Assembly: GCA_050300815.1 (NCBI GenBank) | Contig: JBNKYI010000034.1 | Span: 1-12,899, forward strand | Origin: Fibrobacterales bacterium | GTDB lineage: Bacteria; Fibrobacterota; Fibrobacteria; Fibrobacterales; CAWVXU01 | Direction of reading: 5' to 3' | Length of the DNA: 12,899 nt | Shown: positions 1 through 12,859 of the stretch, in pieces | Layout: every line of letters starts with the position of its first letter | Position numbering within the stretch: position 1 is the stretch's first letter | The notes under the pieces: generated by a model | Databases searched by the model: none | The model's input: the letters and a program-made list of their open reading frames with translations, nothing else | What the model was told of the DNA's origin: nothing | Program-made: the position numbers and the translations under genes

Positions 1-328
1 CCCACGCCAGTGGGGATGATCCGTGAATAGACTTGATCGGGTAGCGGATAAATCTGTGTTCCCCACGCCAGTGGGGATGATCCGATCCAACAGCTACGGA
101 ATCTGCGGATAATGTGGTGTTCCCCACGCCAGTGGGGATGATCCGTCCGTGGGATTCTAGACGCGTCAGCAGATGCAGTGTTCCCCACGCCAGTGGGGAT
201 GATCCGTTATCTGTTCCAGCCCGCCAGATGTTGCAGATGTGTTCCCCACGCCAGTGGGGATGATCCGATCATCCGTCTATTGAGATGACGCGCGATGAAG
301 TGTTCCCCACGCCAGTGGGGATGATCTG
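1..328 (+). CRISPR. CRISPR array, type I-E-like. The window starts inside the array: a partial repeat at 1-23, then full 29-bp repeats at 56-84, 117-145, 178-206, 239-267 and 300-328. Five 32-nt spacers lie at 24-55, 85-116, 146-177, 207-238 and 268-299.
   Basis: Read directly: the repeat GTGTTCCCCACGCCAGTGGGGATGATCCG recurs with an exact 61-bp period and spacers are all 32 nt. The repeat closely resembles the E. coli I-E repeat GTGTTCCCCGCGCCAGCGGGGATAAACCG, and its internal hairpin CCCCAC-GCCA-GTGGGG is preserved by a compensatory A/T pair. The last copy is degenerate (ATGATCtG), which marks the trailer end. Confidence 0.92.
300..328 (+). repeat. Terminal degenerate CRISPR repeat (GTGTTCCCCACGCCAGTGGGGATGATCTG; C to T at repeat position 28) marking the trailer end of the array
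   Basis: One mismatch relative to the five upstream copies. It is followed by non-repeat AT-rich sequence. Realigning at 343-371 finds no further repeat (10/29 matches only). Confidence 0.8.
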
Positions 329-438
329 ATTGAAATAATGCTCGAGAACGAAGATGGGTGGGGAGAGGTTTCTTTTCTGGTGATTAAAGGATTGAAATTA
401 AGAAGAAACACCAAAAGCTATTTTTTAACACATCGAAT

Positions 439-513: not shown

Positions 514-1317
514 ATGCAAGCCAAAGTACCAATGAGCAAAATACTGCAAGAAAACTTCCCTAAGGGCCTGGTTTTACCAAGAAAATACCTACTTGCTAAA
601 GGGGTTCAGGCATACACTCTAGATAACAATGTGAGAAACGGCAAGTTTAGATTGGCGGCCAAAGGGATCTACAGTTGGAGTGAATCTTCAGTGAGTGTCG
701 AGGGTTTTTTAGCTTCGCTTCCATACCTTATGCAACAAAAAATATGGCTAGGGGCAGAGTCGGCATTGCGCTGGCAGGGTTTTGTGCATAACGTTTCTTT
801 TAGCAACTTGCAACGAGTTTCTCTTTTGAGTGAGTCTCATATACCTGCAAATATCAAGGCGGTTGCAAGTCAGATAAAAGGATTAGAGGCAGATTGGTGC
901 AGCGGGTCAAGGTTGTGGGATTATTCAACTCTACAAGCCTGTTCATCAAATGGTATGACGACTCAGATAGAGCGAAAAGGATTTCGTATAGAACTATCAA
1001 CACCCGAAATGGCAGTTCTTGAATTACTACATCAGGTGCCTGATAAAGTGAGTTTCGAAATGGCAGATCATATCATCCAAAGTCTCACTCAGTTATCTCC
1101 CCGCAAAATGACGAAGTGTTTAATCGCGTGTAAAAGTGTAAAAGCCAAAAGGCTCTTTTTTTGGTTTACCCAGCGTTACCAATATCCCTATAGCCAACAC
1201 CTGCAATCTAATGATTTTGACTTAGGCTCAGGTAAGCGCAGGGTAGCTAAAGATGGGGTATTAGATAAAGACCTTTTAATCACGGTGCCCAAAGAGATGC
1301 AAGAGGGGACGCAATGA
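514..1317 (+). CDS. AbiEi-like type IV toxin-antitoxin antitoxin / transcriptional regulator (267 aa). An alternative start at 532 (MSKILQ) is possible.
   Basis: The N-terminal segment KYLLAKGVQAYTLDNNVRNGKFRLAAKGIYSW fits the AbiEi N-terminal wHTH pattern (…eLlalGvs…l.rlv..G.L.rl.rGvY…). The mid-protein motif LSTPEMAVLELL resembles the STPERtllDll motif of the AbiEi C-terminal domain. Its stop overlaps the downstream AbiEii-like start (ATGA at 1314-1317). No Shine-Dalgarno is visible upstream of either candidate start. Confidence 0.55.
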   Translation: MQAKVPMSKILQENFPKGLVLPRKYLLAKGVQAYTLDNNVRNGKFRLAAKGIYSWSESSVSVEGFLASLPYLMQQKIWLGAESALRWQGFVHNVSFSNLQRVSLLSESHIPANIKAVASQIKGLEADWCSGSRLWDYSTLQACSSNGMTTQIERKGFRIELSTPEMAVLELLHQVPDKVSFEMADHIIQSLTQLSPRKMTKCLIACKSVKAKRLFFWFTQRYQYPYSQHLQSNDFDLGSGKRRVAKDGVLDKDLLITVPKEMQEGTQ

Positions 1318-2012
1318 GGGAAAGAGGCTCGGTATATTATAGACAGGTGCAGTTTTTAGTACAAATTTTCCCCTTAATTTTTACTAGAGAAATGTTTGCT
1401 CTAAAAGGCGGTACAGCGATCAACTTGTTTTATCGAGACCTGCCCCGTTTATCGGTAGATATTGATTTGGCCTATTTAGGGCGAGAGCCCAGAACAGAGG
1501 CATTGCACACCATAAGAGCTGTATTGGATGAAATTGCGGAAACAATTGAAAAACGTATGAGTGGGGTGGTCGTTCAAAAAAGTTATGAAAATAAAGAAGA
1601 TGCACTTCGGTTAGTGGTGCAAAGAGCAGATGTCAATGTCAAAATAGAGCTCTCTCCTGTGCTAAGAGGAATCGCTTTTCAGGTTCAGCAAAAAGCAATT
1701 TGCCCTAGGGCAGAAGATGAATTTGGTTTTGTCGAAGTGCCAGTTTTATCAATGGGAGATCTGTATGGGGGTAAAATCTGTGCGGCTTTAGACCGTCAAC
1801 ACCCTAGAGACTTTTTCGATATATGGCTGCTGCTTAAAAATGAGGGAATTACTGAAGAAATACGCAAAGGCACTTTAGTGTATTTGCTAAGCCATCGTAA
1901 GCCTTTAAGTGATCTATTAAACCCTAAACTCAAAGAATTAAAAAGAGTTTTTCAAAATGAATTTGAGGGCATGAGTGAACAGCCTATTGAATTAGAAGAA
2001 TTAGACTTTTGA
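1314..2012 (+). CDS. AbiEii/AbiGii-family nucleotidyltransferase toxin (DUF1814-like), 232 aa from 1314. The internal ATG at 1391 is an alternative start.
   Basis: The translation contains FALKGGTAINLFY…RLSVDIDL, the hallmark N-terminal motif of AbiEii nucleotidyltransferases (consensus about fvLKGGTAlnl…R.S.DIDf). It also contains the downstream GDLYGGKICAALDR…RDFFDIWLL (consensus about EKirAll.R…rDlyDiw.l). It is coupled to the upstream gene by an ATGA overlap. Confidence 0.75.
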   Translation: MRERGSVYYRQVQFLVQIFPLIFTREMFALKGGTAINLFYRDLPRLSVDIDLAYLGREPRTEALHTIRAVLDEIAETIEKRMSGVVVQKSYENKEDALRLVVQRADVNVKIELSPVLRGIAFQVQQKAICPRAEDEFGFVEVPVLSMGDLYGGKICAALDRQHPRDFFDIWLLLKNEGITEEIRKGTLVYLLSHRKPLSDLLNPKLKELKRVFQNEFEGMSEQPIELEELDF

Positions 2013-2149
2013 AGTCTAATGGGGATCAAAAAACAGGCCCTTTTATTTAAGATCTTGGTTACATACTTGAAAAATTAATCGTCTAAGTAAATTAAGAAGT
2101 CAATTAAATTTAAAGAAAAGTCAATTGCAACTAAGGTGCACGAGATCCT

Positions 2150-4111
2150 ATGAATAATATCGCTGCCCAATGGGATACCTTCCCCAAATGGTATAAAAAG
2201 TGGAAAAAGCTCAGCCCAGAGCAACGGTTTTTGATCCTTAAGTTAAAAGCAGGGCTTATGGGCGCTAGAGAAATATCAGGGATCGACAGAGGTGTTTTAG
2301 TTAAGCACGGTTTCATTGATAATGAAAATCCCGATTTCTATAAAATCAATATCGAAAAAGAAGCCCTGCGCTTTTTGAGGGTGGTCGATAAAATATATCT
2401 CTGGTCACAGTTAGAATTGCTCGATGCCTATTGGGAGTTTGGTAAGGCCTTCACGCAAAAAGACCAGCGTGTTTTTATTAGTCAAGAAGATTACAATTTA
2501 GATCGTATCAAAAGCGGTATGTGCTCAAGGTGGTTTTCTGGAGTTTATCTACGCGAGATAGTCGAGTCTAAAAATGAAATTGAATATTTTGCCAATCGAA
2601 ATTTGAAGTATAATTTTGAATGTCTCGACATCATTGAAAAAGATTTTTTTAAACAAATAAAAGCAGTGGTAGCGATTGCAGAAGAACAGGGCGGTGAAGA
2701 TGTGACTGCGGTCTCTACGCCAGACCTATTAAAATTGATTGATACTCAACATAAAGGAATAAGGCACGAAATCACTCAGTTCAAATTTTTTATCGACAAT
2801 GCTTTACATGCCCTGTTCTTGCCGATGCTTGATTCTGATCTCGACATCGTTTGGGTTATCCCTGCAATGAAAGATGAAGTTTTTGATGTCGAAATTAAAC
2901 TCCCCGAAGTGGCTCCAAAACATTTGATTTATCAATGCGATCAAGTACTCTACGACCTGAGGTTTTTCCTTAAATACATAGAAACTCATGATGTAGATGA
3001 ATTAATGATGGGTGGCGTTTCGGCGGTCAATCACCGCAAAATTATTTCGAATTGTGCTAAAACGCATCCTCTATTAGGTGACTGGGGAGTGGAAGACTTG
3101 CAACGCGGACGCATTTGTTATCAAATTTTATCTGATAATAACCTGATAACGACCATCAAAAAAAGCGCGCGCAAGTGGTTGGTCAAACCCAGTGCAGAAG
3201 CCGAGACGTTTTTGCAGTTAAATGCGAAAAATCAAAAAGAAACCATTTTAAAAACGCTTAGTATTGGCAAGACACAAGTGAGTAGTGAGTGGGTCAAGTG
3301 GCTTGATGGTTGGGATGCTCAACCCATGCCTTGGAAGGCGCAAACCCTTGTGATGTGGGAATCTCTCTCGGTTCATCTTAAACAATTAGCTAAGAGCTAT
3401 CCATTAAATTCATTGATCAATAAAATAGAGCACGAAGCCAACCCCCTTCGAATTGAATTGATGAGCAACCCCGAAGTCATGTCTGCTTGGCGCGGTTGGC
3501 GAGGAAGTCCACAAGAAATCTATCCATTTTACTTCTTAAAAAATGTGGCGGTACTGATCTACTTTGGTTTGGTGCAAATTCTTCACTCAGAAAAAGGACT
3601 GGTCCTTTTGTTAACCAATGAAGGCACAGAGTATTTCAATCTTGGTTCACAAAAATCAAGTAAGCCAATGTCACCGCCAAAATGCCTTATCGTTAATTCA
3701 GACCATACCCTATTTCAAACCGATCAGAAATTATACTTGGGGCATGTTTATCATCTTTTCTGTGATGAATACATCGTCGATGGTCCGGTTAAACTCAGTA
3801 AAGAGGCGATTTTGCGGTCGATTCAGATGGGATTTTCTGAACAAGAATTGATAAATACTTTGCAAGAATTTTCACAGAATAAAATCCCCCCTAATGTGGT
3901 GAGTGAGATTAGGCATCTTGCCCGTCCCAAAGAACCTGTGGTGGTAACCGAAACCCTCTTGATAGAGTCAAACGATATAATGCGCATTGCTTCAATTAAA
4001 GAAAAGTTTTCAAAAGATTTTGAAATGATTAACGCGCATATGCTAAGGTATGTGGGCAAACAAAAGGCAAGCGCGGTAAAGAAAAAGTTGATGGCAAAGG
4101 GATTGCTATAA
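2150..4111 (+). CDS. Hypothetical 653-aa protein with an N-terminal HTH-like segment and a C-terminal region resembling the XPB N-terminal 'helicase-associated'/damage-recognition domain. There is no helicase partner in the window.
   Basis: A long uninterrupted ORF has AGGTG 12-17 nt upstream of the ATG. The N-terminus LSPEQRFLILKLKAGLMGAREISGIDRGVL looks like a sigma-70-region-4/LuxR-type HTH. The C-terminal stretch VKLSKEAILRSIQMGFSEQELINTLQEFSQNKIPPNVVSEIRHLARPKEP aligns by eye with the mycobacterial XPB N-terminal segment ITPLALWNARAAGHDAEQVVDALVSYSRYAVPQPLLVDIVDTMARYG. I recognised no other family. Confidence 0.8.
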   Translation: MNNIAAQWDTFPKWYKKWKKLSPEQRFLILKLKAGLMGAREISGIDRGVLVKHGFIDNENPDFYKINIEKEALRFLRVVDKIYLWSQLELLDAYWEFGKAFTQKDQRVFISQEDYNLDRIKSGMCSRWFSGVYLREIVESKNEIEYFANRNLKYNFECLDIIEKDFFKQIKAVVAIAEEQGGEDVTAVSTPDLLKLIDTQHKGIRHEITQFKFFIDNALHALFLPMLDSDLDIVWVIPAMKDEVFDVEIKLPEVAPKHLIYQCDQVLYDLRFFLKYIETHDVDELMMGGVSAVNHRKIISNCAKTHPLLGDWGVEDLQRGRICYQILSDNNLITTIKKSARKWLVKPSAEAETFLQLNAKNQKETILKTLSIGKTQVSSEWVKWLDGWDAQPMPWKAQTLVMWESLSVHLKQLAKSYPLNSLINKIEHEANPLRIELMSNPEVMSAWRGWRGSPQEIYPFYFLKNVAVLIYFGLVQILHSEKGLVLLLTNEGTEYFNLGSQKSSKPMSPPKCLIVNSDHTLFQTDQKLYLGHVYHLFCDEYIVDGPVKLSKEAILRSIQMGFSEQELINTLQEFSQNKIPPNVVSEIRHLARPKEPVVVTETLLIESNDIMRIASIKEKFSKDFEMINAHMLRYVGKQKASAVKKKLMAKGLL

Positions 4112-4144
4112 GAAGTGATTGAGGCTTTAAGTCAAGAGAGCATC

Positions 4145-4181
4145 CAAATAAAATGGGAGAGTGGTGAAGCCACACTCTCCC
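4145..4181. terminator. Hairpin terminator between convergent genes: stem GGGAGAGTG (4155-4163) pairs with CACTCTCCC (4173-4181) around a 9-nt loop. An A/T tract at 4145-4154 gives a U-run (AUUUUAUUUG) for the - strand transcript of the glycosidase gene.
   Basis: Inverted repeat read directly. The U-tract fits - strand transcription. On the + strand the hairpin is followed by AAAACAAA, so it may stall but not classically terminate the 2150-4111 transcript. Confidence 0.55.
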
Positions 4182-4212
4182 AAAACAAATCGAATGGATT
4201 AGACTAAGAATT

Positions 4213-6033
4213 TTATTGTGCAAACACGATGGGTTTAGCTAAAGCAGAACTTGTAACTTTCAAAAGGGTTCCTTTTTGTGACCAGCCTGTGAGTTGCACG
4301 GTTTCAGCAGAATTCGCGTTAAACGCTTTTTGACGCAAGAGTCGGCCTTGATTGTCAAAAACCTGAATGGTATACAGCCCTGCTTTTTCGGCGGTGAATT
4401 GCAAGTCATCACCGTTCAAAACAAATGCTTTGCCGGGGTTTTGAGACAGTTGATTGTTTGTAACGGCATCGCCTTCTAAAACAAAATGCAGAACAGAGCG
4501 AGCGGGCAGTGAATAGGCAAAAGTATTTGAAACGATTGAGCTTACGGCGGTGCGTTGAGTGATGTTGCTAGAGCCTGAGTCATAACCCCAAACGGCGCCT
4601 GTATTTAGGTTGATTCCGACATTTTGAAGATTAAATGTTGCGGTTTCAGCAGTGCTTGATTTGTTGATGGCAATAAGGTGAAGCACTTTGGGGTCACTTG
4701 ATTGCTTCGCGGCGTGAATAGAAACGAGTCCGTTATCGCTTGATGTTGCTCCCAAGGCAATATCGCCAAAACGACTGCCACTGCCGTCGTAGTTGCCATA
4801 GATTTTAAAGCCAGCTTGGCCGTAGGCGTCAAGAGTGCCCCAATAGGTTGCGGCATAAACGCCGAATTTACCGTAAACGCCAAGAACATCGGCTACGGCT
4901 AACCCCCCGCTCCAATGTTCGGTCGCCCCAAAATCCCATTCGGTCACACTAAATTTAGTTCCCGGATAGTTAGCGGCAATTTTTTCGTTTAAGCGGGGAA
5001 TGAGTTTGATAGGACCTTGAGTCATCCAAGTGGCAATCCAGCTGGTTTCAGTATAGGTCGTGTCCCAAAGTGAACGAGGAGCTTGAATACGCGCTTCAGA
5101 CTGAAGGTCTGAGGTTTGGTTACAGTTTGTAGACATCAAAATACGGCAATCGGTTTCACCTTGAGCTTCGGGGTACCAATGGATATCAATAACGTCTAAA
5201 AGGCGTTTGCCGACGCTTTCGCTTTCGGTCTTCATGTCTTGTAAAAACTTGTCAAAAAACCAGGTGCCAGAGAGGTCAGACCAAGCGTCAGAATAGGCTG
5301 ACCATCCAAAAAGAACACCTCCGTAGACCTCGGCGCTGGGGTCGACGGCTTTAACGGCTTTGGCCAAAGGAATACTCTTGGCGAGGACACTCGCATAAGT
5401 GGCGGCGGTAGGTACGATACGAGGGTGGGTGCCATTCCAGAGATAAGGCTCATTATCGAGCAAATAACCTTGCACCCCGCCTTGTGCGGCGGTTCCATAT
5501 TTAGAGACTAAGAAGTTGACGAATTCGTCCATATAAACAGCGCTGTCGGTTAGGTCGGGAGTGGTCACAAAGGCGCTGCCTTTGGCGGCATGAACGGGTA
5601 TCCAGCGCGAGCTGGGAGCGGCCTCTGCCACAGAAACGGCTCCATTTTTATCAGCGGCGACATAGCCTGCCATTTGCAGGGTCACGATTGATTTTTGACT
5701 GCGGCTATTGCCAGCATCGACAAAATCGGTCACTACAATGCCCGGTACGTCACTGTTGCTCAAATAGCCATCACTGCTGTGTTGCCAATCCGAACCGGCG
5801 TTACTGGCATTTGTTTCCCAGTTGTAACCCGTAAAGCGGTTTCCACCTTGGCGTTGAAAGGTCATTCCCGAGCCTGAAAAATAGTTGTGGTCGTTATTCC
5901 CATAGACGTAAGGGCTTATTGTCTTTTGAGTTGTGGTATCAACGGTCAGAGTGACTTGGGCGTTAGCCGTTCCCATCGCAAGGGTAAAGGGAAACAAGAG
6001 ACTGAGGATTTTTGGGTTACTTATTATTTTCAT
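4213..6033 (-). CDS. Secreted clan GH-A glycoside hydrolase, most like family GH44 endoglucanase/xyloglucanase, with a C-terminal beta-rich sorting-like domain (606 aa)
   Basis: The N-terminal signal peptide is MKIISNPKILSLLFPFTLAMGTANAQ. LLDNEPYLW has the clan GH-A NEP acid/base (Glu195 by my count). SVTEWDFG has the TEW nucleophile (Glu365). The spacing of about 170 residues matches the roughly 173-residue spacing of the GH44 catalytic glutamates as I recall them. The NWETNASNAGSDW block also fits GH44. The C-terminal approximately 70 aa (…LYTIQVFDNQGRLL…KGTLLKV…) resembles a T9SS-type C-terminal domain. GC content is visibly higher than in the flanking genes. Confidence 0.7.
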   Translation of the reverse strand: MKIISNPKILSLLFPFTLAMGTANAQVTLTVDTTTQKTISPYVYGNNDHNYFSGSGMTFQRQGGNRFTGYNWETNASNAGSDWQHSSDGYLSNSDVPGIVVTDFVDAGNSRSQKSIVTLQMAGYVAADKNGAVSVAEAAPSSRWIPVHAAKGSAFVTTPDLTDSAVYMDEFVNFLVSKYGTAAQGGVQGYLLDNEPYLWNGTHPRIVPTAATYASVLAKSIPLAKAVKAVDPSAEVYGGVLFGWSAYSDAWSDLSGTWFFDKFLQDMKTESESVGKRLLDVIDIHWYPEAQGETDCRILMSTNCNQTSDLQSEARIQAPRSLWDTTYTETSWIATWMTQGPIKLIPRLNEKIAANYPGTKFSVTEWDFGATEHWSGGLAVADVLGVYGKFGVYAATYWGTLDAYGQAGFKIYGNYDGSGSRFGDIALGATSSDNGLVSIHAAKQSSDPKVLHLIAINKSSTAETATFNLQNVGINLNTGAVWGYDSGSSNITQRTAVSSIVSNTFAYSLPARSVLHFVLEGDAVTNNQLSQNPGKAFVLNGDDLQFTAEKAGLYTIQVFDNQGRLLRQKAFNANSAETVQLTGWSQKGTLLKVTSSALAKPIVFAQ

Positions 6034-6224
6034 ATGTGGCCTATCGGTGAGGGTTTAAATTCACTTCTTTGGGCATTAATTTAATCTCAAAAAATAGGGA
6101 TAGGAAAAGAATATTGAATAAATTGACGGATGTTGACTAAAAATCTGTCAATACCCAACAGATATAAACTGGCCTGATTGATTGGTGCTAAAATGGCAAC
6201 GATCTAGGTATGATTGCAGACTGG

Positions 6225-6254
6225 CCTCAGAGGTACCTCAGAGGTACCTCAGAG
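6225..6254. promoter_or_regulatory. Tandem repeat (CCTCAGAGGTA x about 2.7) containing two copies of the perfect 10-bp palindrome GAGGTACCTC (6230-6239 and 6241-6250) in the divergent promoter region. It is a candidate operator.
   Basis: Read directly. GAGGTACCTC is its own reverse complement and the two copies are 11 bp apart. It lies between the divergently transcribed glycosidase and HEXXH-protein genes. Confidence 0.35.
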
Positions 6255-6373
6255 CAGTTTGCGTTCTTGGTGCGGGCTAAGATAAAATCGGGCAGCCGCT
6301 AAATACTTTATTTTGTCTTGAAGACGTTTTTAGAATTTAGTTTGAAGGATTCATAGCCGTTAGAAGGGGTTTT

Positions 6374-8239
6374 ATGTCATTCAATCCTCAGAGGGGTTTT
6401 GGCCTCATTTCGTTAAGTGTGCTGATTTTTTTGACCTCCGTTTTTTCGGGGCAAGCCTTCGGGCAAGTTGCGCAAAAACAAATCTATATCCCCACTTTTA
6501 TAACCAACGCAGGGATGGATTTAAATGATTCATCGAGTCAATGGAGCTATCGGCGAAGTGTAGAAACCGAAAATTGGATCATTTTTTGGGAGCCCGGATT
6601 TGGAGCCGACCCCGCGCAAGCTCAAGGTGATTATTATGTCAATATGGAGCAATTGAAACAGACGGCAGAAGAGAGCTTTAAGGTGATGCTTGAAGAACTC
6701 AAGATGGTCGAAAAAGGCAAGTCTAAGACGGATCAATATAAGCAGATGATCTTTTTGCTTTATTCGACAGATTGGAGTGCTTATGGTTCGGGCCAAGATG
6801 ATAAGGTGGGAACCTTGCATGTTAACCCTGCTGCGGCGAATATCCCTACCGTTGTTGCCCACGAGATTGGCCACTGCTTTGAATACATGACGGGTGCCGA
6901 CGTGCCCGGAGGAGGTCTTCGCTATGGCTTCGGGCCCAACGCTTCGGGCGGGAATGGTTTTTGGGAACAAGTGGCTCAATGGCAATCCTTTAAGGTCTAC
7001 CCAAATGAACAATTTAAAGTATGGGATTTTGGCGAATATGTGAAAAACAATCACCTGCACATCATTCATGAAACACCTCGATACGCCAACTACTTTTTGC
7101 CAGACTATTGGGCTTATAAGCGCGGAATCGATTTTATGGGGAAATTGTGGAGAGGGGCCAAGCAACCCGAAGATCCCATCGAAGCTTATCAGAGGTTAAA
7201 TGCGATTTCACAAAGCGAATTTAATGATGAGATGTATGAGCACGCCGCTCGTTTAACCACATGGGATTTGCCCTTGATAAAAAGTTACGGCCAATCCTAT
7301 CTCGCCGCGAGGCCCCAGGTGAAATTCAACGCTGATCAAAATTCCTTTTACAGAATAGATTCGGCAGAGACACTTGAAAATTACGGTTATAATAGCATTC
7401 AACTTGAAATACCCACAATGCAGAGGCGAATCCTTGTCGAATGGGAAGGTCTAGCGGGGGCGCAAGGCTATCGAAATAAGAACTACGAGCAAGCCGGTTG
7501 GCGAGCGGGATTTGTGGCTTTGCTTCAAGATGATTCTCGCATTTATGGACCTATGCAGGCATTTGAATATAAGGGAGGGAATCCTTTAGACTCGATGTTT
7601 TTTGAAGTGCCCCAAAGTGCGAAATCCCTATGGCTTGTCGTTAGTGGTGCCCCACAAAATCATTGGCGACATCCTTGGGATGATGATAATAGCAATGACG
7701 AGCAATGGCCCTATCGCTTGCGATTTACCAATACACAGTTTAAGGGAAGTGCCATCGATCGAGTGCAAACGTTTTATCACATCACGGCAGATACCAGTCT
7801 ATACGGTCAGGTTCGCATTTCAGATGAATGGCTTGCCGAAGGTAAAACGGTTCGTATAGAAGCGATACCTCAAGAGGGTTATTCATTTAATCAATGGCTG
7901 GGAGATCTTGCGGGGCAGGCAAATCCAATACAATGGGAGATGTATAGCGATCTAAAGGTGAGTGCTGAATTTATTTCTCAGACGGTGGCCTTAAATACTT
8001 CAGAGCCTAGGGGGCGTGAACCTGATGGGTCGCTAAATGGAATTGAACAGTTTTTAAATCAAAGTGGAAATCAAATAGAGATTTACAATAGCGAGGGACG
8101 TTTAATGAGCACGGTGCGAAGCCCCAGAGCAATGAATGAGGTCAGCAGCTATCTGGCGAATTCGCCAGGGAATTATCTCTTTGTGTGGGTCGAAAATGGT
8201 TTTAAAACGAAATCTCACCAAGTTTTTATCAAACCTTAA
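6374..8239 (+). CDS. Secreted HEXXH-motif protein (putative zinc-dependent hydrolase, family unresolved) with an InlB-B/Listeria-Bacteroides-type repeat and a C-terminal sorting-like domain (621 aa)
   Basis: AAGGGG Shine-Dalgarno 7 nt upstream. The signal peptide is MSFNPQRGFGLISLSVLIFLTSVFSGQAFGQ. VVAHEIGHCFEY contains HEXXH. IPQEGYSFNQWLGDL matches the bacterial repeat domain pattern. The C-terminal IEIYNSEGRLMS…GNYLFVWVENGFKTKSHQVFIKP resembles a T9SS-type C-terminal domain. Confidence 0.75.
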   Translation: MSFNPQRGFGLISLSVLIFLTSVFSGQAFGQVAQKQIYIPTFITNAGMDLNDSSSQWSYRRSVETENWIIFWEPGFGADPAQAQGDYYVNMEQLKQTAEESFKVMLEELKMVEKGKSKTDQYKQMIFLLYSTDWSAYGSGQDDKVGTLHVNPAAANIPTVVAHEIGHCFEYMTGADVPGGGLRYGFGPNASGGNGFWEQVAQWQSFKVYPNEQFKVWDFGEYVKNNHLHIIHETPRYANYFLPDYWAYKRGIDFMGKLWRGAKQPEDPIEAYQRLNAISQSEFNDEMYEHAARLTTWDLPLIKSYGQSYLAARPQVKFNADQNSFYRIDSAETLENYGYNSIQLEIPTMQRRILVEWEGLAGAQGYRNKNYEQAGWRAGFVALLQDDSRIYGPMQAFEYKGGNPLDSMFFEVPQSAKSLWLVVSGAPQNHWRHPWDDDNSNDEQWPYRLRFTNTQFKGSAIDRVQTFYHITADTSLYGQVRISDEWLAEGKTVRIEAIPQEGYSFNQWLGDLAGQANPIQWEMYSDLKVSAEFISQTVALNTSEPRGREPDGSLNGIEQFLNQSGNQIEIYNSEGRLMSTVRSPRAMNEVSSYLANSPGNYLFVWVENGFKTKSHQVFIKP

Positions 8240-8315
8240 GGTTCGATTTTCGCAAACCGACAACAGCGCGGTTTAAATTGTTACCATTCTGCTACGAATT
8301 CAATGAGGAGGCATA

Positions 8316-9200
8316 GTGGAAAAGAAACTTGCAATCAAAGCTTTACTGATTCCGATCATTCTAATAATTGTCATCGTGAGCGCTTTTACAATGTTTGAAA
8401 CGGTGCCCGCGGGTCACGTTAAGGTGGCGACTTTGTTTGGCAAAGTGGCCACGAGCTATGACGAGGGCTTACACATTGTTAACCCTCTTTACAAATTTCA
8501 CCTTTATGATGTCAGGCAAAAGTCGCTAAAAATGGAACAGGTGGGTGTGCCGAGCATGGATCAAATGATCACTAACTTTGATGTTTCGTTGCAATACCGC
8601 GTCAATAGAGCGATGGTGGCCTCGATTGTCAATGAAACGGGAACTCTGCAACAATTGGTTCAAGTGCACATGGTTCCCAAGTTTAGGTCGTTGTTGCGCG
8701 AGATATCAAAGAGCGTAGAGAGAGCCGAAGACTTTTATCAAAAAGACGTGCAACAAACGGTGCAAACGTCGCTTTTAGAAGGGCTTAGAGAGTATTGTGC
8801 ACCCAAAGGGATCGAAGTGCAAGAGGTGCTGATTCGCGGAGTGCAATTACCTACAGTGATTCGCGAGGCGGTAGAGCGCAAAAAGCGTCGCCAGCAACAA
8901 GCCGAAGAGCAAAAGGCAGAATTGACCCGCTTTAAGGTTGAGCAAGAACAAAAGCTAGCTCAAGCGCAAGCCGAGAGAGCGGCCGCTGAAGAAGAGGCAA
9001 AGAAGATTAAGCTTATGGCCGATGCAGAAGCCTATAAAATTCAAAAGTTAAACCAAGCGATCGCTCGAAATCCGGCATATATTCAACTGCAAGCGATTCA
9101 GGCGATGGAAAAAATTTCTCAAAACCCGGCCAGTCAAGTCTACTTCATCAATGGCGACAGCCCTAACCCTTTGCCTTTAATGAACTTAGGTAAGAAATAA
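8316..9200 (+). CDS. SPFH/band-7 (prohibitin/stomatin/HflKC superfamily) membrane protein, 294 aa, GTG start
   Basis: Strong GGAGG 7 nt upstream of the GTG. The N-terminal TM helix is LLIPIILIIVIVSAF. VPAGHVKVATLFGKV is a typical band-7 domain start. The C-terminus is an A/E/Q/K-rich coiled-coil (…RRQQQAEEQKAELTRFKVEQEQKLAQAQAERAAAEEEAKK…). Confidence 0.75.
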   Translation: MEKKLAIKALLIPIILIIVIVSAFTMFETVPAGHVKVATLFGKVATSYDEGLHIVNPLYKFHLYDVRQKSLKMEQVGVPSMDQMITNFDVSLQYRVNRAMVASIVNETGTLQQLVQVHMVPKFRSLLREISKSVERAEDFYQKDVQQTVQTSLLEGLREYCAPKGIEVQEVLIRGVQLPTVIREAVERKKRRQQQAEEQKAELTRFKVEQEQKLAQAQAERAAAEEEAKKIKLMADAEAYKIQKLNQAIARNPAYIQLQAIQAMEKISQNPASQVYFINGDSPNPLPLMNLGKK

Positions 9201-9346
9201 TACGGGGTGGGGTTATGTTTGCAAATAGGCCTGATTGATTGGAACTTAAATAACCCGCCTATGCGGTGTAAGTTAAAAAAAGCTTGTCTAGATCTCTTTA
9301 AAATTCATACAAAGAAGGTCATGTAACTTAAAGCATTCGACATCTG

Positions 9347-10102
9347 ATGAAACGTGTAGCGACTCTATCTATTTACTGTATTTATTTGTTTTTAACATGG
9401 GTTCGCGCCGATGAACAAGGGCCTTATTTAAGAATTGCCTATGGCCAGCACAATGGAGAACCCTATGTGATGACCACCGAGGGGCGCGTTCTTGCGGGGA
9501 TCGTTAAAGATTTGGGAGATGAATTGGCGGCGCGCCTTCACCTCGTTCCCGAATACGTAAATATTCCTCGCAAAAGACTCGATGGGGCCATTCAAAAAGG
9601 AGACGCTGACGTCAGTTTTATTTCGAGCAAGAAATGGACGCCCAACGAGACCGCTTATCTATGGAGCGAGGTTCTTTTTGTTGAGCGAGATGTTTTTTTA
9701 TTTGTGCGTAAAGCAGATCCCCCCTATGAGAGGTTAGAGCAGATGGAAGGGCTCAAAGTGGGAACCATTTTGGGCTATGTTTATCCCGAGTTAGATTCGC
9801 TGTTTGAGTTGGGATATTTGGTGCGCGATGATGCACTCAATTTAGAGCAAAGCATAAATAAACTGCTCAATGGGAGAGTCGATGTTGTTGTTAATGCCGA
9901 TCGAATGTCTGAGTATTTGGTTAAAAGAAAAAACCTCGCGGGGCTCTTAGAGTTCGGCCGCTTTCCTCTAGATAGCAATGAAATTAGGGCGCGTTTTTCT
10001 CCTGAAAAATTGTTGCCTGTAAAATTTGAACAAATCAATAAAGCCCTCAACGAAATGATCGAAGAGGGCTTTGTCGAAAGAGTATTAGAAAAATACCGCT
10101 AG
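9347..10102 (+). CDS. Periplasmic/secreted solute-binding protein, family 3-like (amino-acid-type transporter substrate-binding domain), 251 aa. It is an orphan: no permease or ATPase lies adjacent.
   Basis: Signal-peptide-like N-terminus (MKRVATLSIYCIYLFLTWVRA). The size and overall pattern fit an SBP_bac_3 fold (…KVGTILGYVYPE…). The assignment is by general resemblance only. The stop at 10100-10102 lies 12 bp from the convergent leuS stop. Confidence 0.5.
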   Translation: MKRVATLSIYCIYLFLTWVRADEQGPYLRIAYGQHNGEPYVMTTEGRVLAGIVKDLGDELAARLHLVPEYVNIPRKRLDGAIQKGDADVSFISSKKWTPNETAYLWSEVLFVERDVFLFVRKADPPYERLEQMEGLKVGTILGYVYPELDSLFELGYLVRDDALNLEQSINKLLNGRVDVVVNADRMSEYLVKRKNLAGLLEFGRFPLDSNEIRARFSPEKLLPVKFEQINKALNEMIEEGFVERVLEKYR

Positions 10103-10114
10103 TGCTCGCTTTGT

Positions 10115-12859
10115 TTATCCCTTGATAACAATATTTATCAATTTGTTGGGTACTGCAATCACCTTGACAATTTCTTTTCCTGCAATCCACTTTTGCATGA
10201 TTTCATCTGTCATAGCCAGTTTTTCCATTTCTGTTTTGGGAAGGTTTGCAGGAACCTCGAGTTTCGCGCGCACCTTGCCGTTGACTTGAAAGACAATCGT
10301 CACCTCATCTTCTTTCATTTTTTCGGCGTCGGCGACGGGGAAAGGGGTAAAGCACAGGTTTTTTTCGCCTAACATTTCCCACAATTCTTCGCCTAAGTGC
10401 GGAGCGAAAGGAGCGAGAATTTGCACAAAAGATTTAGCTGTTTCACGGGGGATGAAATCGAGTTTAGTCAATTCATTGTTGAGAATCATCAAGGCTGAGA
10501 TCGCGGTGTTAAAACGCAAAGCCTCGATGTCTCCGCTGACTTTGTCGATGGTTTGATGCAGCAAGCGCACCAGCTTTTTGTCTGCCGTAGAATCGTTGAC
10601 CTTGAGGGTGCCATCTTCAGCGACAAAATTCTTCCAGACCTTTTGCAAAAAGCGAAATTGACCTTCGAGGCCGGCGGTTTGCCAAGGCTTAGTGGCTTCA
10701 AGGGGGCCCATGAACATTTCGTATAAACGCAGAGCGTCAGCACCGTGGCTTTCGACCACATCGTCAGGGTTTACCACGTTTTTAAGTGACTTAGACATTT
10801 TAGCAACGATTTGCTTGAGTTCTTCACCCGTTTCGATGTGAAAGTACTTGCCAGCATCTTCGCGAACCAAATCAGAGGGTACCTTCGAACCTGAGATCGT
10901 TTCGTAGGCAAAAGCGAGAATCATTCCCTGATTAAAAAGCTTTTGATAGGGCTCAGAGGTCGAAACCACACCGAGATCAAAAAGCACTTTGTGCCAAAAG
11001 CGAGAATACAACAGGTGAAGAACGGCGTGTTCGGCTCCGCCTACGTAAAGGTCGACAGGCATCCAGTAGTTTTCGAGAGCCTCATCAAAGGGGTTTTTGT
11101 CGTTTTGGGGATCAATGTAGCGCAAGTAATACCAGCACGAGCCTGCCCATTGGGGCATAGTGTTGGTTTCGCGACGGCCTTTGCGGCCGTTGGCATCAAT
11201 GACTTCGAGCCATTTGCCTGAGTTGGCTAAGGGAGATTCACCGGTGTCAGAGGGCTTAAATTCTTCGAGCTCGGGCAATGCCAGTGGCAATTCTGCATCT
11301 TCAAGGGTGCTCACCTCGCCGTCTTCCCAGTGAATGATAGGAAAGGGCTCACCCCAATAGCGCTGACGACTAAAGAGCCAATCGCGGATTTTATAGTTGA
11401 TTTTAAACTCGCCCTTGCCCTGATCTTGCAACCACTGGGTGGTTTTTTCAATGGCTTCAGATTTGTTGAGTCCGTTGAGGTCGAGAGAGGCGTTGGCTGA
11501 ATTGATCGCCTGACCTTGGCCAGACCAACACTCTTCGCCTGCGAGAACAGCGGCGCGAATTTCTGCTTGGCCTTCGGGTGTTTTGAGACGTTCGCCGATT
11601 TCATTGCGATTCCATTTATGACAAGCGGTATGGTCGGCTTTGGCTCCTTTAAAATCGGGCTCTTGAATACAGATCACAGGAATGTCAAAGGTTTTGGCAA
11701 ATTCAAAATCCCGTTGATCGTGAGCGGGAACGGCCATGATGGCACCTGTGCCGTAACCCGTTAAAACGTAATCGGCGACCCAAATGGGGATTTCTCTGCC
11801 AGTGAGGGGATTGATCCCATAAGATCCCGTAAAGACACCCGTTTTTTCTTTAGAAAGCTCGGTGCGCTCAAGCTCAGATTTAAGAGTCGCTTTAGTAACG
11901 TAGGCTGCAACAACTTGTTTTTGCTCTGCCGAAGTCAGCGCGTCTAAGAGAGGGTGCTCGGGAGCGACGACCATGTAAGTGGCACCGAATAGAGTGTCGG
12001 GACGGGTGGTGTAAACGCGCAATTTGCTGTTGAGGCCGTTAACTTCAAAATCCACCTCGGCTCCTGTCGAACGGCCGATCCAGTTGCGTTGCATGTCTTT
12101 AACGCCTTCGGGCCAATCAAGTGCGTCGAGCCCTTCAATTAAGCGTTCGGCATAATGAGGGATACGCAGTTGCCATTGCTTAAGGTCTTTGCGAAAAACA
12201 TTTTTTGTGCCACATTTTTCGTGACTGCCATCTTGTAGCACCTCTTCGTTGGCGCATACTGTTTTGCAGTGATCACACCACCAAACTTGAGCGTTGTCGT
12301 AATAGGCTAGGCGCTTTTCTGCTTGGTATGCCCGCACGGCCTCTTTACCTGCAGCTTCAACTTCTGCGGGAATGGGCAACTCATTGATGGGGCGGCCCTT
12401 TTGGGTTTCTTTGTCAAACCAAGTGTTGTACAGGCGAATGAAGATCCATTGTGTCCATTTGTAATAGGTGGGATCAGTGGTGTTGATCTCGCGATCCCAA
12501 TCGTAACTCAACCCTAGACTTTTGATTTGGCGTTTAAAATTGTCACAATTTTTTTGAGTGGTGATCGCGGGGTGAGTTCCCGTTTGAATTGCGTACTGTT
12601 CGGCGGGTAGACCGAAGGCGTCCCAGCCCATGGGATGCAATACATTAAAGCCCTTGGCGCGCTTATAGCGACAAATGATGTCTGTCGCAGTATAACCTTC
12701 GGGGTGACCGACGTGCAAACCGTTGCCACTTGGATAGGGAAACATGTCTAAGCAATAAAACTTGGGTTTGCTTAAGTCATTTGTGGTTTTAAAGGTTTGA
12801 TTGGCTTCCCAAAAATTTTGCCATTTGGGCTCGATCTCGCTGGGGGTGTATTTACTCAT
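10115..12859 (-). CDS. leuS: Leucine--tRNA ligase (leucyl-tRNA synthetase), complete, 914 aa
   Basis: The translation shows class I synthetase motifs: [10 protein letters not shown] (HIGH-type), KMSKS ([13 protein letters not shown]), the conserved LeuRS N-terminus …KWQNFWE…[12 protein letters not shown]…, and the zinc-binding CDHCKTVC region. The start is at 12859 with AGGA about 8 nt upstream on the - strand. Confidence 0.95.

Follow-up and report, generated by a model that had tools for sequence, protein, structure and literature searches.

The window analysed here, that is the whole stretch of DNA under study, is the 12,899-nt contig JBNKYI010000034.1 of a Fibrobacterales bacterium (assembly GCA_050300815.1), taken on the forward strand. 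It opens with the trailer end of a CRISPR array (1..329, + strand) composed of six 29-nt repeats, the last one degenerate, and 32-nt spacers with a 61-nt period; the repeats resemble those of type I-E. The array is followed by an AbiE pair (type IV toxin-antitoxin/abortive infection) comprising AbiEi (514-1317, + strand; Pfam AbiEi_3 and AbiEi_3_N, PADLOC E 7.9e-58) and AbiEii (1314-2012, + strand; Pfam AbiEii, PADLOC E 6.1e-92). The pair ends 137 nt upstream of a gene on the same strand (2150..4111, +) that codes for a p52/Tfb2-like, PF13625-bearing protein of 653 aa, and no terminator was detected between AbiEii and this gene. Downstream lies a convergent GH44 glycosidase gene (4213-6033, - strand) with a G+C of 0.48, against 0.40 for the 653-aa gene and 0.41 for AbiE, and the segment formed by AbiE and the 653-aa gene has a G+C below that of its neighbours. 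ORF and composition thus agree with the earlier note on this DNA, which had described one large gene between CRISPR/AbiE and a glycosidase of different composition. As to signs of a mobile element, the contig showed no tRNA, no Rfam family and no bounding repeats. Synteny sought via LeuRS was also lacking, the closest LeuRS being that of a Fibrobacterales MAG (73% identity) on a contig that ends 99 nt past LeuRS.

The ORF at 2150-4111, with its stop codon at 4109-4111, is a real gene with full-length homologues, the closest with an E of 6.9e-44 (P0002). Its ATG start is backed by the N-terminal alignment with the homologues, in which M1, W8 and W18 are invariant, and 11 nt ahead of the start codon stands AAGGTG (2133..2138, + strand), possibly a Shine-Dalgarno sequence. 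A search of 1900-4400 gave no sigma-70-like promoter. Searches of NCBIfam and PHROGs with the 653-aa protein returned noise only, and a single-sequence phmmer search of the PDB gave chance matches only (topoisomerase II, a periplasmic binding protein).

An exhaustive HMMER search identified a family of 17 representatives among 1.84 billion, made of proteins of about 650 aa from organisms scattered over 32-66% G+C. All usable relatives came from this search and not from the word-indexed homologue search, which returned only the query for the full protein and for alignment A1, and only seven fragments with alignment A2. No related loci were found by a protein search of reference genomes, no relatives in viral contigs, phage records or plasmid records, and none encoded in 80 LeuRS-anchored loci (0/80). 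The family is very rare and bacterial, and it is p52/XPB-like without a helicase, as described below. At two loci, L002 and L091, it is represented by a conserved A/B paralogue pair (L091_A and L002_A share 80% identity, L091_B and L002_B 62%, A and B 44-49%), which makes the label of a single-gene system uncertain for the 653-aa gene. A distant relative (P0017 cluster) bears the NCBI name "helicase-associated domain-containing protein".

Conservation within the family is highest in the C-terminal module (aa 501-653; 3650..4108, + strand), which resembles the XPB N-terminal domain and the p52 "clutch" (PF13625). In the 653-aa protein the PF13625 (Helicase_C_3) match, from aa 548 to 609 against positions 39-103 of the 125 in the profile, scored 22.5 bits (E 1.2e-4), below the gathering threshold of 34.2 bits. 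The same model was matched by 15/15 aligned family members (best E 1.4e-13), those from L091 and L092 reaching 45-52 bits, over threshold, so that family membership in PF13625 is transitive: the homologues match the model and the 653-aa protein is the most divergent member of the family. Comparison with a bona fide bacterial XPB N-terminus gave a BLASTP E of 1e-7 for aa 501-653 and, by hhalign, a probability of 97.9% (E 3.7e-13) for the family C-terminal profile; the family and bacterial XPB also have in common the motif LPxNVxxEI. The C-terminal module is homologous to the XPB N-terminal domain and to the TFIIH p52/Tfb2 "clutch", and the resemblance to the XPB N-terminus that the earlier note had pointed out is confirmed both by the family PF13625 matches and by BLASTP. 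The label of DNA-damage recognition that came with it is not supported, the domain corresponding to the XPB N-terminal domain/p52 clutch, which in TFIIH is a protein-protein pairing module and not a demonstrated DNA-recognition domain (PMC6422496).

The likeness to p52 extends beyond this module. The AlphaFold model has a pLDDT of 80-94 across aa 250-653, and it includes, upstream of the C-terminal module, a confidently modelled, p52/Tfb2-like winged-helix array (aa 253-500; 2906..3649, + strand) with winged-helix-like units at about aa 258-347 and 400-488. When aa 250-653 were compared with the PDB by Foldseek, the top 17 matches were all TFIIH p52/Tfb2, followed by XPB chains; the p52/Tfb2 matches had E values from 4.9e-7 to 4.9e-3 and covered 390-590 aligned columns and several domains. 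The family profile, in turn, matches the p52 clutch region (aa 292-392 and 308-408) with an E of 5.5e-5. A differing domain arrangement keeps the TM-scores against p52/Tfb2 low (0.14-0.35), the likeness residing in the single domains and in their order, without a rigid superposition. The Pfam Tfb2 model PF03849 was matched by one of 15 members (E 0.061), and the 653-aa protein was unmatched even at E up to 10. Taken together, the fold predicted for the C-terminal two-thirds of the protein is that of p52 (Tfb2), a repair/transcription factor of eukaryotes. The earlier statement that most of the protein is without a matching family is hence correct for sequence libraries and incorrect for structure, where aa 250-653 match p52/Tfb2; the earlier note had overlooked this likeness of the entire C-terminal two-thirds.

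The N-terminal region is less clear. A conserved segment spans aa 1-85 (2150..2404, + strand), with W8, W18, L21 and R26 conserved in the alignments, and may be a winged HTH. A helix-helix-helix-hairpin is predicted for aa 10-85 with a pLDDT of 60-78, a separate AlphaFold run on the N-terminal domain gave a mean pLDDT of 54.8, the only Foldseek matches were non-significant ArsR/MarR-type wHTH (E > 1), and the N-terminal profile found nothing meaningful in the PDB. The models thus weakly suggest an N-terminal HTH. The following region (aa 86-252; 2405..2905, + strand) is helical, poorly modelled and variable, being indel-rich and non-conserved in the alignments, with a pLDDT < 50 at aa 152-166 and 188-246. 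It is in this region that a PD-(D/E)xK nuclease core (D...DVEIK) had earlier been proposed, at aa 226-252 (nt 2825-2905). We rejected it: the motif is not conserved in the family alignments and falls in an unmodelled linker with a pLDDT < 50, and the 653-aa protein has neither a nuclease fold match in Foldseek nor a match to a Pfam nuclease family. The HMM and structure searches suggested in the earlier note therefore yielded PF13625 matches for the family and a p52/Tfb2 fold, with the 653-aa protein itself sub-threshold and no nuclease fold.

None of the genes of the 12,899-nt contig codes for a helicase, though the host genome may encode one of XPB type outside this 12.9-kb stretch, and no XPB-type helicase is adjacent to the family gene in any of about 11 loci (the window, L001-L004, L009, L091, L092, L094, L097 and the P0014 contig). 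The description of an XPB-type domain detached from any helicase, already given in the earlier note, holds across these loci. The canonical arrangement, in which an XPB helicase adjoins a PF13625 partner, was seen only in L093, which is outside the family. We take M. tuberculosis Rv0862c to be another XPB-adjacent "helicase-associated domain" protein.

As for the genomic context, AbiE is found next to or near family genes in 4/10 loci and in 0/80 control loci, the control being a crude tblastn and HMM survey of 80 LeuRS-anchored FCB-group loci (1.39 Mb) with an AbiE HMM built from only four AbiEii sequences. For this small sample and crude control the hypergeometric probability is ~8e-5, or ~7e-4 when L002 and L091, which are related lineages and not fully independent, are merged. 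AbiE directly adjoins the family gene in the window, L002 and L097; in L091 it is on the upstream side at a distance of about 6 kb. From locus to locus the AbiE modules diverge from one another and belong to different subfamilies (AbiEi_3 and AbiEi_4), and they may lie upstream on the same strand, between the paralogues, downstream in convergent orientation or about 6 kb off. This variation in orientation and distance is a counterpoint to the idea of one fixed AbiE operon. In L091 the DISARM genes DrmA, DrmB and DrmC are directly upstream of the family gene, on the same strand and 53 nt away, and CRISPR is beside the family gene once, in the window. The defence-island setting first noted for the window gains tentative backing from the comparison of AbiE frequencies and from DrmABC in L091. 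A role in defence is probable for the family by guilt by association, since the 653-aa protein matches none of the defence families of PADLOC-DB v2 at E up to 1.

The reading that we put forward, holding it a little short of an even chance, is that the family consists of non-enzymatic multi-winged-helix scaffolds that dimerise via the XPB-like module and reside in defence islands. In TFIIH the p52 clutch and the XPB N-terminal domain, which have the same fold, pair as a pseudo-symmetric dimer, and bacterial XPB operons likewise place two PF13625-bearing proteins side by side, and for these reasons the C-terminal module is proposed as a dimerisation device. Single-copy loci such as the window would yield a homodimer and the loci with the conserved paralogue pair an A/B heterodimer, and the dimer would present two winged-helix arrays able to bind DNA or another partner. 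Because the gene recurs beside AbiE, and is found once beside DISARM and once beside CRISPR, the protein could be a component of defence islands (a sensor, a scaffold or a regulator) and not an effector, no catalysis being predicted. A counterpoint to a non-enzymatic role is that the unassigned N-terminal 250 residues could hide an activity. A bolder form of this proposal, which we regard as somewhat unlikely, sees in the protein a class of defence-island component not recognised before, namely a helicase-free p52/Tfb2-like scaffold whose XPB partner has been replaced by its own second copy, as homodimer or A/B heterodimer. Such a scaffold would partner nucleotidyltransferase toxins of the AbiE type, or systems of the DISARM type, in sensing DNA or in regulation, and would also be a bacterial relative of p52 in full architecture.

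The protein could instead work in trans, as an adaptor or activator of a helicase of XPB type (or of another SF2 helicase) whose gene lies in a different part of the genome, docking on the PF13625 N-terminal domain of the helicase as p52 does on XPB, with a role in repair or coupled to transcription and not in defence. The C-terminal fold is indeed the one by which p52 and XPB pair and by which the XPB ATPase is stimulated (PMC6422496; PMC3353954), and the pairing of XPB with a PF13625 protein in bacterial XPB operons (L093) and the shared LPxNVxxEI motif point the same way. We nevertheless consider this unlikely: no XPB gene adjoins family members in the roughly 11 loci, the XPB-adjacent partner of L093 aligns with the family over 121 columns only, the A/B pairs suggest that the family itself supplies the second PF13625 copy, and patchy rarity together with a low-GC island is more in keeping with an accessory gene than with a repair factor.

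We are equally doubtful of a DNA-binding or structural protein unlinked to immunity, for which CRISPR, AbiE and DISARM would be mobile insertions into a permissive variable region. About half of the family loci are without defence neighbours: no recognised defence gene is beside the family gene in L003, L009 and L092, and L004 has an NTase pair about 3 kb away and otherwise none beside it, the neighbours being instead alginate lyase and amine oxidase (L003), aconitase and NRPS (L009), purA (L004) and PEGA/CsgG (L092). The variable position and orientation of AbiE, the lack of a PADLOC match and the absence of relatives from phages, plasmids and viral contigs are also consistent with this explanation. 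It accounts poorly, however, for AbiE of divergent subfamilies at 4/10 loci against 0/80 controls and for the same-strand DrmABC that precedes the family gene of L091 by 53 nt, and extreme rarity with a spread over 32-66% G+C is typical of horizontally mobile accessory genes.

The system that recurs at four loci, in three of them as immediate neighbour, is specifically AbiE and no random assortment, which could mean that the protein works with the adjacent AbiE as a third component or regulates it, for example by sensing infection and then releasing or controlling AbiEii; in the window 137 nt separate the gene from AbiE, both are on one strand and no terminator was detected in between. We find this very improbable, as six family loci are without AbiE, the arrangement is not conserved, the AbiE subfamilies differ and AbiE is described as a complete, self-sufficient bicistronic operon (PMC3985639). 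Finally, the single-gene defence effector of the earlier note, in which a PD-(D/E)xK nuclease core lies between an HTH and a domain for DNA-damage recognition, is hardly credible, having in its favour only the local D...DVEIK pattern and the defence-island position, with a core that shows no conservation, confident structure or fold match.

Should the association with AbiE, DISARM and CRISPR be functional, a non-enzymatic, winged-helix-rich component would be added to bacterial immunity, and prokaryotic conflict systems would contain relatives of a eukaryotic core-transcription/repair module. A purely positional association would still leave the corrected annotation, p52/XPB-N-terminal-like and not nuclease. 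In the literature searched we found nothing on stand-alone PF13625 proteins, and a bacterial protein with a p52-like domain order would be a simple model in which to study how the XPB-N-terminal/clutch fold functions without a helicase; a bacterial relative with the full p52 architecture, if true, would bear on the origin of the XPB-p52 pair of TFIIH.

Among known systems, AbiE has no sequence or fold relationship with the 653-aa protein, the association being positional only. In XPB/Ssl2/Rad25, including bacterial XPB, the PF13625 domain is N-terminal and fused to two RecA-like helicase domains, whereas here it is C-terminal in a protein devoid of a helicase. The XPB-adjacent helicase-associated proteins (L093:11563-13518) are likewise stand-alone, of roughly 650 aa and with one PF13625 domain, but in the L093 partner this domain is mid-protein, the sequence after it contains a SEC-C motif, and the gene is immediately beside that of XPB; hhalign aligns it with the family over the PF13625 module only (121 columns, probability 96%). 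Eukaryotic p52/Tfb2 (GTF2H4) differs in that the 653-aa protein is bacterial, about 200 residues longer and shows no sign of counterparts of the p52 partners XPB, p8, p34 and p62; what the two have in common is the multi-winged-helix and clutch architecture of the solved p52/Tfb2 structures.

The gene at 2150-4111 on the plus strand encodes a p52-like protein of 653 aa in an ORF that starts with ATG, and AAGGTG lies 11 nt 5′ of this codon. The gene is genuine, the homologues including P0002, the closest of the representatives from the exhaustive protein search, which aligns end to end (E 6.9e-44). Because M1, W8 and W18 are kept invariant in the N-terminal alignment of the relatives, the annotated start is supported.

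The C-terminal two-thirds of the protein has a domain order like that of the TFIIH subunit p52/Tfb2, in which winged helices precede the 'clutch' fold. In the AlphaFold model built from the family alignment, aa 250-653 reached a pLDDT of 80-94 and aa 1-250 were poorly modelled. The top 17 Foldseek matches in the PDB were p52/Tfb2 chains (best E 4.9e-7), and since these alignments extend over 390-590 columns, several domains match; XPB chains ranked after them, with ~157 columns. Searched against PDB sequences, the family profile matched human p52/GTF2H4 (E 5.5e-5, on p52 aa 308-408), fungal Tfb2 and, at E ~6e-3, XPB N-terminal domains. PF13625 (Helicase_C_3), the Pfam model of the XPB N-terminal domain, was matched by 15/15 aligned family members (best E 1.4e-13), so that the proposed Pfam assignment held for the family but not for the window protein on its own, whose score of 22.5 bits at aa 548-609 is below the cutoff of 34.2 bits. 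With this protein as query, PADLOC gave no match and NCBIfam and PHROGs gave only noise. Its last 153 residues nevertheless aligned by BLASTP with the N-terminus of the bacterial XPB encoded at the unrelated reference locus L093 (E 1e-7, 27% identity over 110 residues), to which the family profile was also related by hhalign (probability 97.9%, E 3.7e-13) and with which the family has in common an LP(A/P)NVxxEI motif. The XPB-like C-terminus read by the earlier note is thus upheld by PF13625 at family level, by the predicted fold and by direct alignment with a bacterial XPB. The Pfam Tfb2 model was not matched by the window protein, which is therefore not filed as a p52 orthologue. We hold its assignment as a multi-winged-helix protein with an XPB-N-terminal/p52-clutch-like module with high confidence.

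Members of the family are extremely rare: when 1.84 billion representative proteins were scanned exhaustively with HMMER, 17 relatives emerged, most of them of ~650 aa, a search of 5.8 billion clusters added only a few fragments, and the plasmids, phages and viral contigs searched held none. Among the family clusters listed, nearly all are singletons from metagenome assemblies. The distribution is patchy over distant lineages, since the G+C of the family loci spans 32% to 66%.

In the window, the surroundings were found as first described, with a CRISPR trailer and an AbiE pair on one side and a compositionally different glycosidase on the other. The trailer (1-329) has six repeats at a 61-nt period, with 29-nt repeats (GTGTTCCCCACGCCAGTGGGGATGATCCG), 32-nt spacers and a degenerate final repeat (…ATCTG); the repeats resemble those of type I-E, and no cas genes were found within the window. 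AbiEi (514-1317; Pfam and PADLOC, E 7.9e-58) and AbiEii (1314-2012; Pfam and PADLOC, E 6.1e-92) have reading frames that share 4 nt. The AbiEii product, of 232 aa, spans 3-216 of the 290 PADLOC-model positions and 2-219 of the 238 Pfam positions, so the toxin may be C-terminally shortened. Downstream, the GH44 glycosidase gene is convergent with the gene under study. At 4213-8239 the GH44 (minus strand) and DUF6055 (plus strand) genes are divergent, both products have weak C-terminal T9SS sorting-domain matches, and G+C climbs from ~0.40 to 0.45-0.48 at the boundary. The G+C is 0.41 for AbiE, 0.40 for the gene, and 0.48 for both GH44 and LeuRS; the LeuRS is nearest to that of a Fibrobacterales MAG (73%), followed by Prolixibacteraceae (~68%), which places the host in the FCB group, probably in Fibrobacterota. 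No sigma-70-type promoter-like sites were found in 1900-4400, where shuffles predict 6.2 ± 2.2, which fits an organism using non-canonical (Bacteroidota/FCB-type) promoters.

Across a neighbourhood survey of about 11 family loci, no XPB-type helicase adjoins a family gene, in agreement with the view of an XPB-like domain detached from a helicase partner. The canonical bacterial order, an XPB with PF13625, ResIII, Helicase_C and ERCC3_RAD25_C followed by a 651-aa PF13625 protein, was seen only in L093 (9848-13518). In this reference pair the helicase stop overlaps the start of the partner, which ends with a SEC-C motif, a metal-binding motif. The partner and the family share only the 121-column PF13625 module. 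At two loci the family is present as a conserved paralogue pair (L091_A and L002_A 80% identical, L091_B and L002_B 62%), A and B being 44-49% identical to each other; they stand side by side in L091 and have the AbiE module in between in L002.

Within TFIIH, the clutch of p52 and the N-terminal domain of XPB have homologous folds and form a beta-sheet-paired pseudo-symmetric dimer, by which XPB is recruited (PMC6422496); contact of p52 with this domain of XPB also stimulates the ATPase of the helicase (PMC3353954). On this precedent, the C-terminal module would be a pairing device requiring a second copy of itself, which would come from the helicase in XPB operons such as that of L093, and in the family from the paralogue of an A/B pair or, at single-copy loci like the window, from a homodimer. 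Each such dimer would carry two arrays of winged helices that could bind DNA or protein partners. The same precedent could describe an adaptor acting in trans on an XPB encoded elsewhere in the genome; set beside the conserved paralogue pairs, we consider this unlikely.

Further helicases and relatives were observed at other loci. In L094 (1654-5992; also L095 and L096), the gene of the N-terminally short family member P0011 (417 aa) is separated by 11 nt from a convergent one for an SNF2 helicase of 1024 aa with a weak ERCC3_RAD25_C match; the SNF2 protein encoded in L002, 3.6 kb upstream of the family gene, is only weakly similar to this helicase (24% identity over 216 aa). In L005 (10001-12595; also L006 and L007), the distant relative P0015 (864 aa) has PF13625 fused to a WYL domain, and two N6_Mtase/Eco57I-type genes lie ~4-9 kb upstream. 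WYL is a ligand-sensing domain, and one family of WYL-domain regulators is reported to co-localise with phage defence systems and islands (PMC9122601). Both L002 (6627-7082) and L003 (1474-1872) have a DUF2721 gene on the opposite strand, 3-4.5 kb upstream of their family gene, which may be residual synteny of related hosts and not function.

The setting among defence genes, claimed from the window CRISPR and AbiE, gained some support from the recurrence of AbiE and from DISARM, in a small locus sample. AbiE lies immediately upstream of the gene in the window, between the paralogues in L002, convergent and 22 nt downstream in L097, and ~6 kb upstream in L091. Neither tblastn nor HMM found AbiE in 80 unrelated LeuRS-anchored control loci (1.39 Mb), giving a hypergeometric probability of ~8e-5, or ~7e-4 with L002 and L091 merged, against what is a crude control. 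In L091 a DISARM core (PADLOC E: DrmA 1.7e-269, DrmB 2.2e-86, DrmC 1.7e-73) is followed on the same strand, after a 53-nt gap, by the paralogue pair; this 20-kb locus showed neither a methyltransferase nor DrmD or DrmE. The same-strand block at 878-12467, near-identical in L090, reads AbiEi-like, AbiEii, DrmA, DrmB, DrmC, paralogue A, paralogue B. L002 also has PIN and Fic genes, and its SNF2 gene matches the PADLOC HKD+Snf2 candidate model; L004 has an NTase pair (NTase_sub_bind and NTP_transf_2 matches) ~3 kb downstream. A functional link of the family to AbiE and DISARM is suggestive and unproven. The recurrent AbiE, DISARM and CRISPR neighbours suggest that the protein might be a sensor, scaffold or regulator, and a self-pairing winged-helix dimer with such a role in defence islands is our tentative preference, with a chance just short of even. 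Other neighbours have no apparent tie to defence (in L003 alginate lyase and amine oxidase, in L004 purA, in L009 aconitase and NRPS, in L092 PEGA/CsgG), as would suit a DNA-binding protein without a defence role in a permissive region; next to the AbiE enrichment, we judge this improbable, to about the same degree as the adaptor. That the protein is a third component of AbiE would agree with their adjacency in the window, but the AbiE modules at family loci belong to different subfamilies, mostly without detectable mutual similarity, and therefore represent independent juxtapositions, and we give this reading a low probability.

The nuclease effector of the earlier note is highly improbable: the PD-(D/E)xK arrangement claimed mid-protein (aa 226-252) is within, and at the edge of, a stretch that AlphaFold left unmodelled (aa 188-246), none of the aligned relatives has the motif in this linker, which is rich in indels, and Pfam nuclease families gave no match even up to E 10. 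N-terminal to it, where the earlier note saw an HTH-like segment, residues 10-85 are predicted with moderate confidence as three helices and a hairpin; a dedicated model of the N-terminal region had a mean pLDDT of 54.8, its best fold matches, the ArsR and MarR regulators, were non-significant, and its profile found nothing meaningful in the PDB. The analyses show a protein of multiple winged helices that ends in an XPB-N-terminal/p52-clutch module and has neither a recognisable catalytic domain nor an adjacent helicase. Of the original proposal, the helicase-free XPB-like module and the position in a defence island are supported, but the nuclease is not.

On a computational basis and from a small sample of loci, the family is rare and uncharacterised, and its eukaryote-like architecture is unexpected. 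Our literature search found nothing on helicase-less, stand-alone PF13625 or p52-like bacterial proteins, and a preprint that describes YprA helicase systems related to DISARM makes no mention of XPB, p52 or AbiE components. What appears new, as judged from sequence and structural models, is a helicase-less protein with PF13625 placed C-terminally, a p52-like architecture and a bias towards defence islands. With respect to DISARM, the L091 paralogue pair occupies the usual place of the accessory genes. Bacterial XPB-associated partner proteins by definition adjoin XPB, whereas the family genes have no adjacent XPB at the loci surveyed; the XPB PF13625 domain and the p52 clutch are homologous to the C-terminal module and, by analogy, may work alike.
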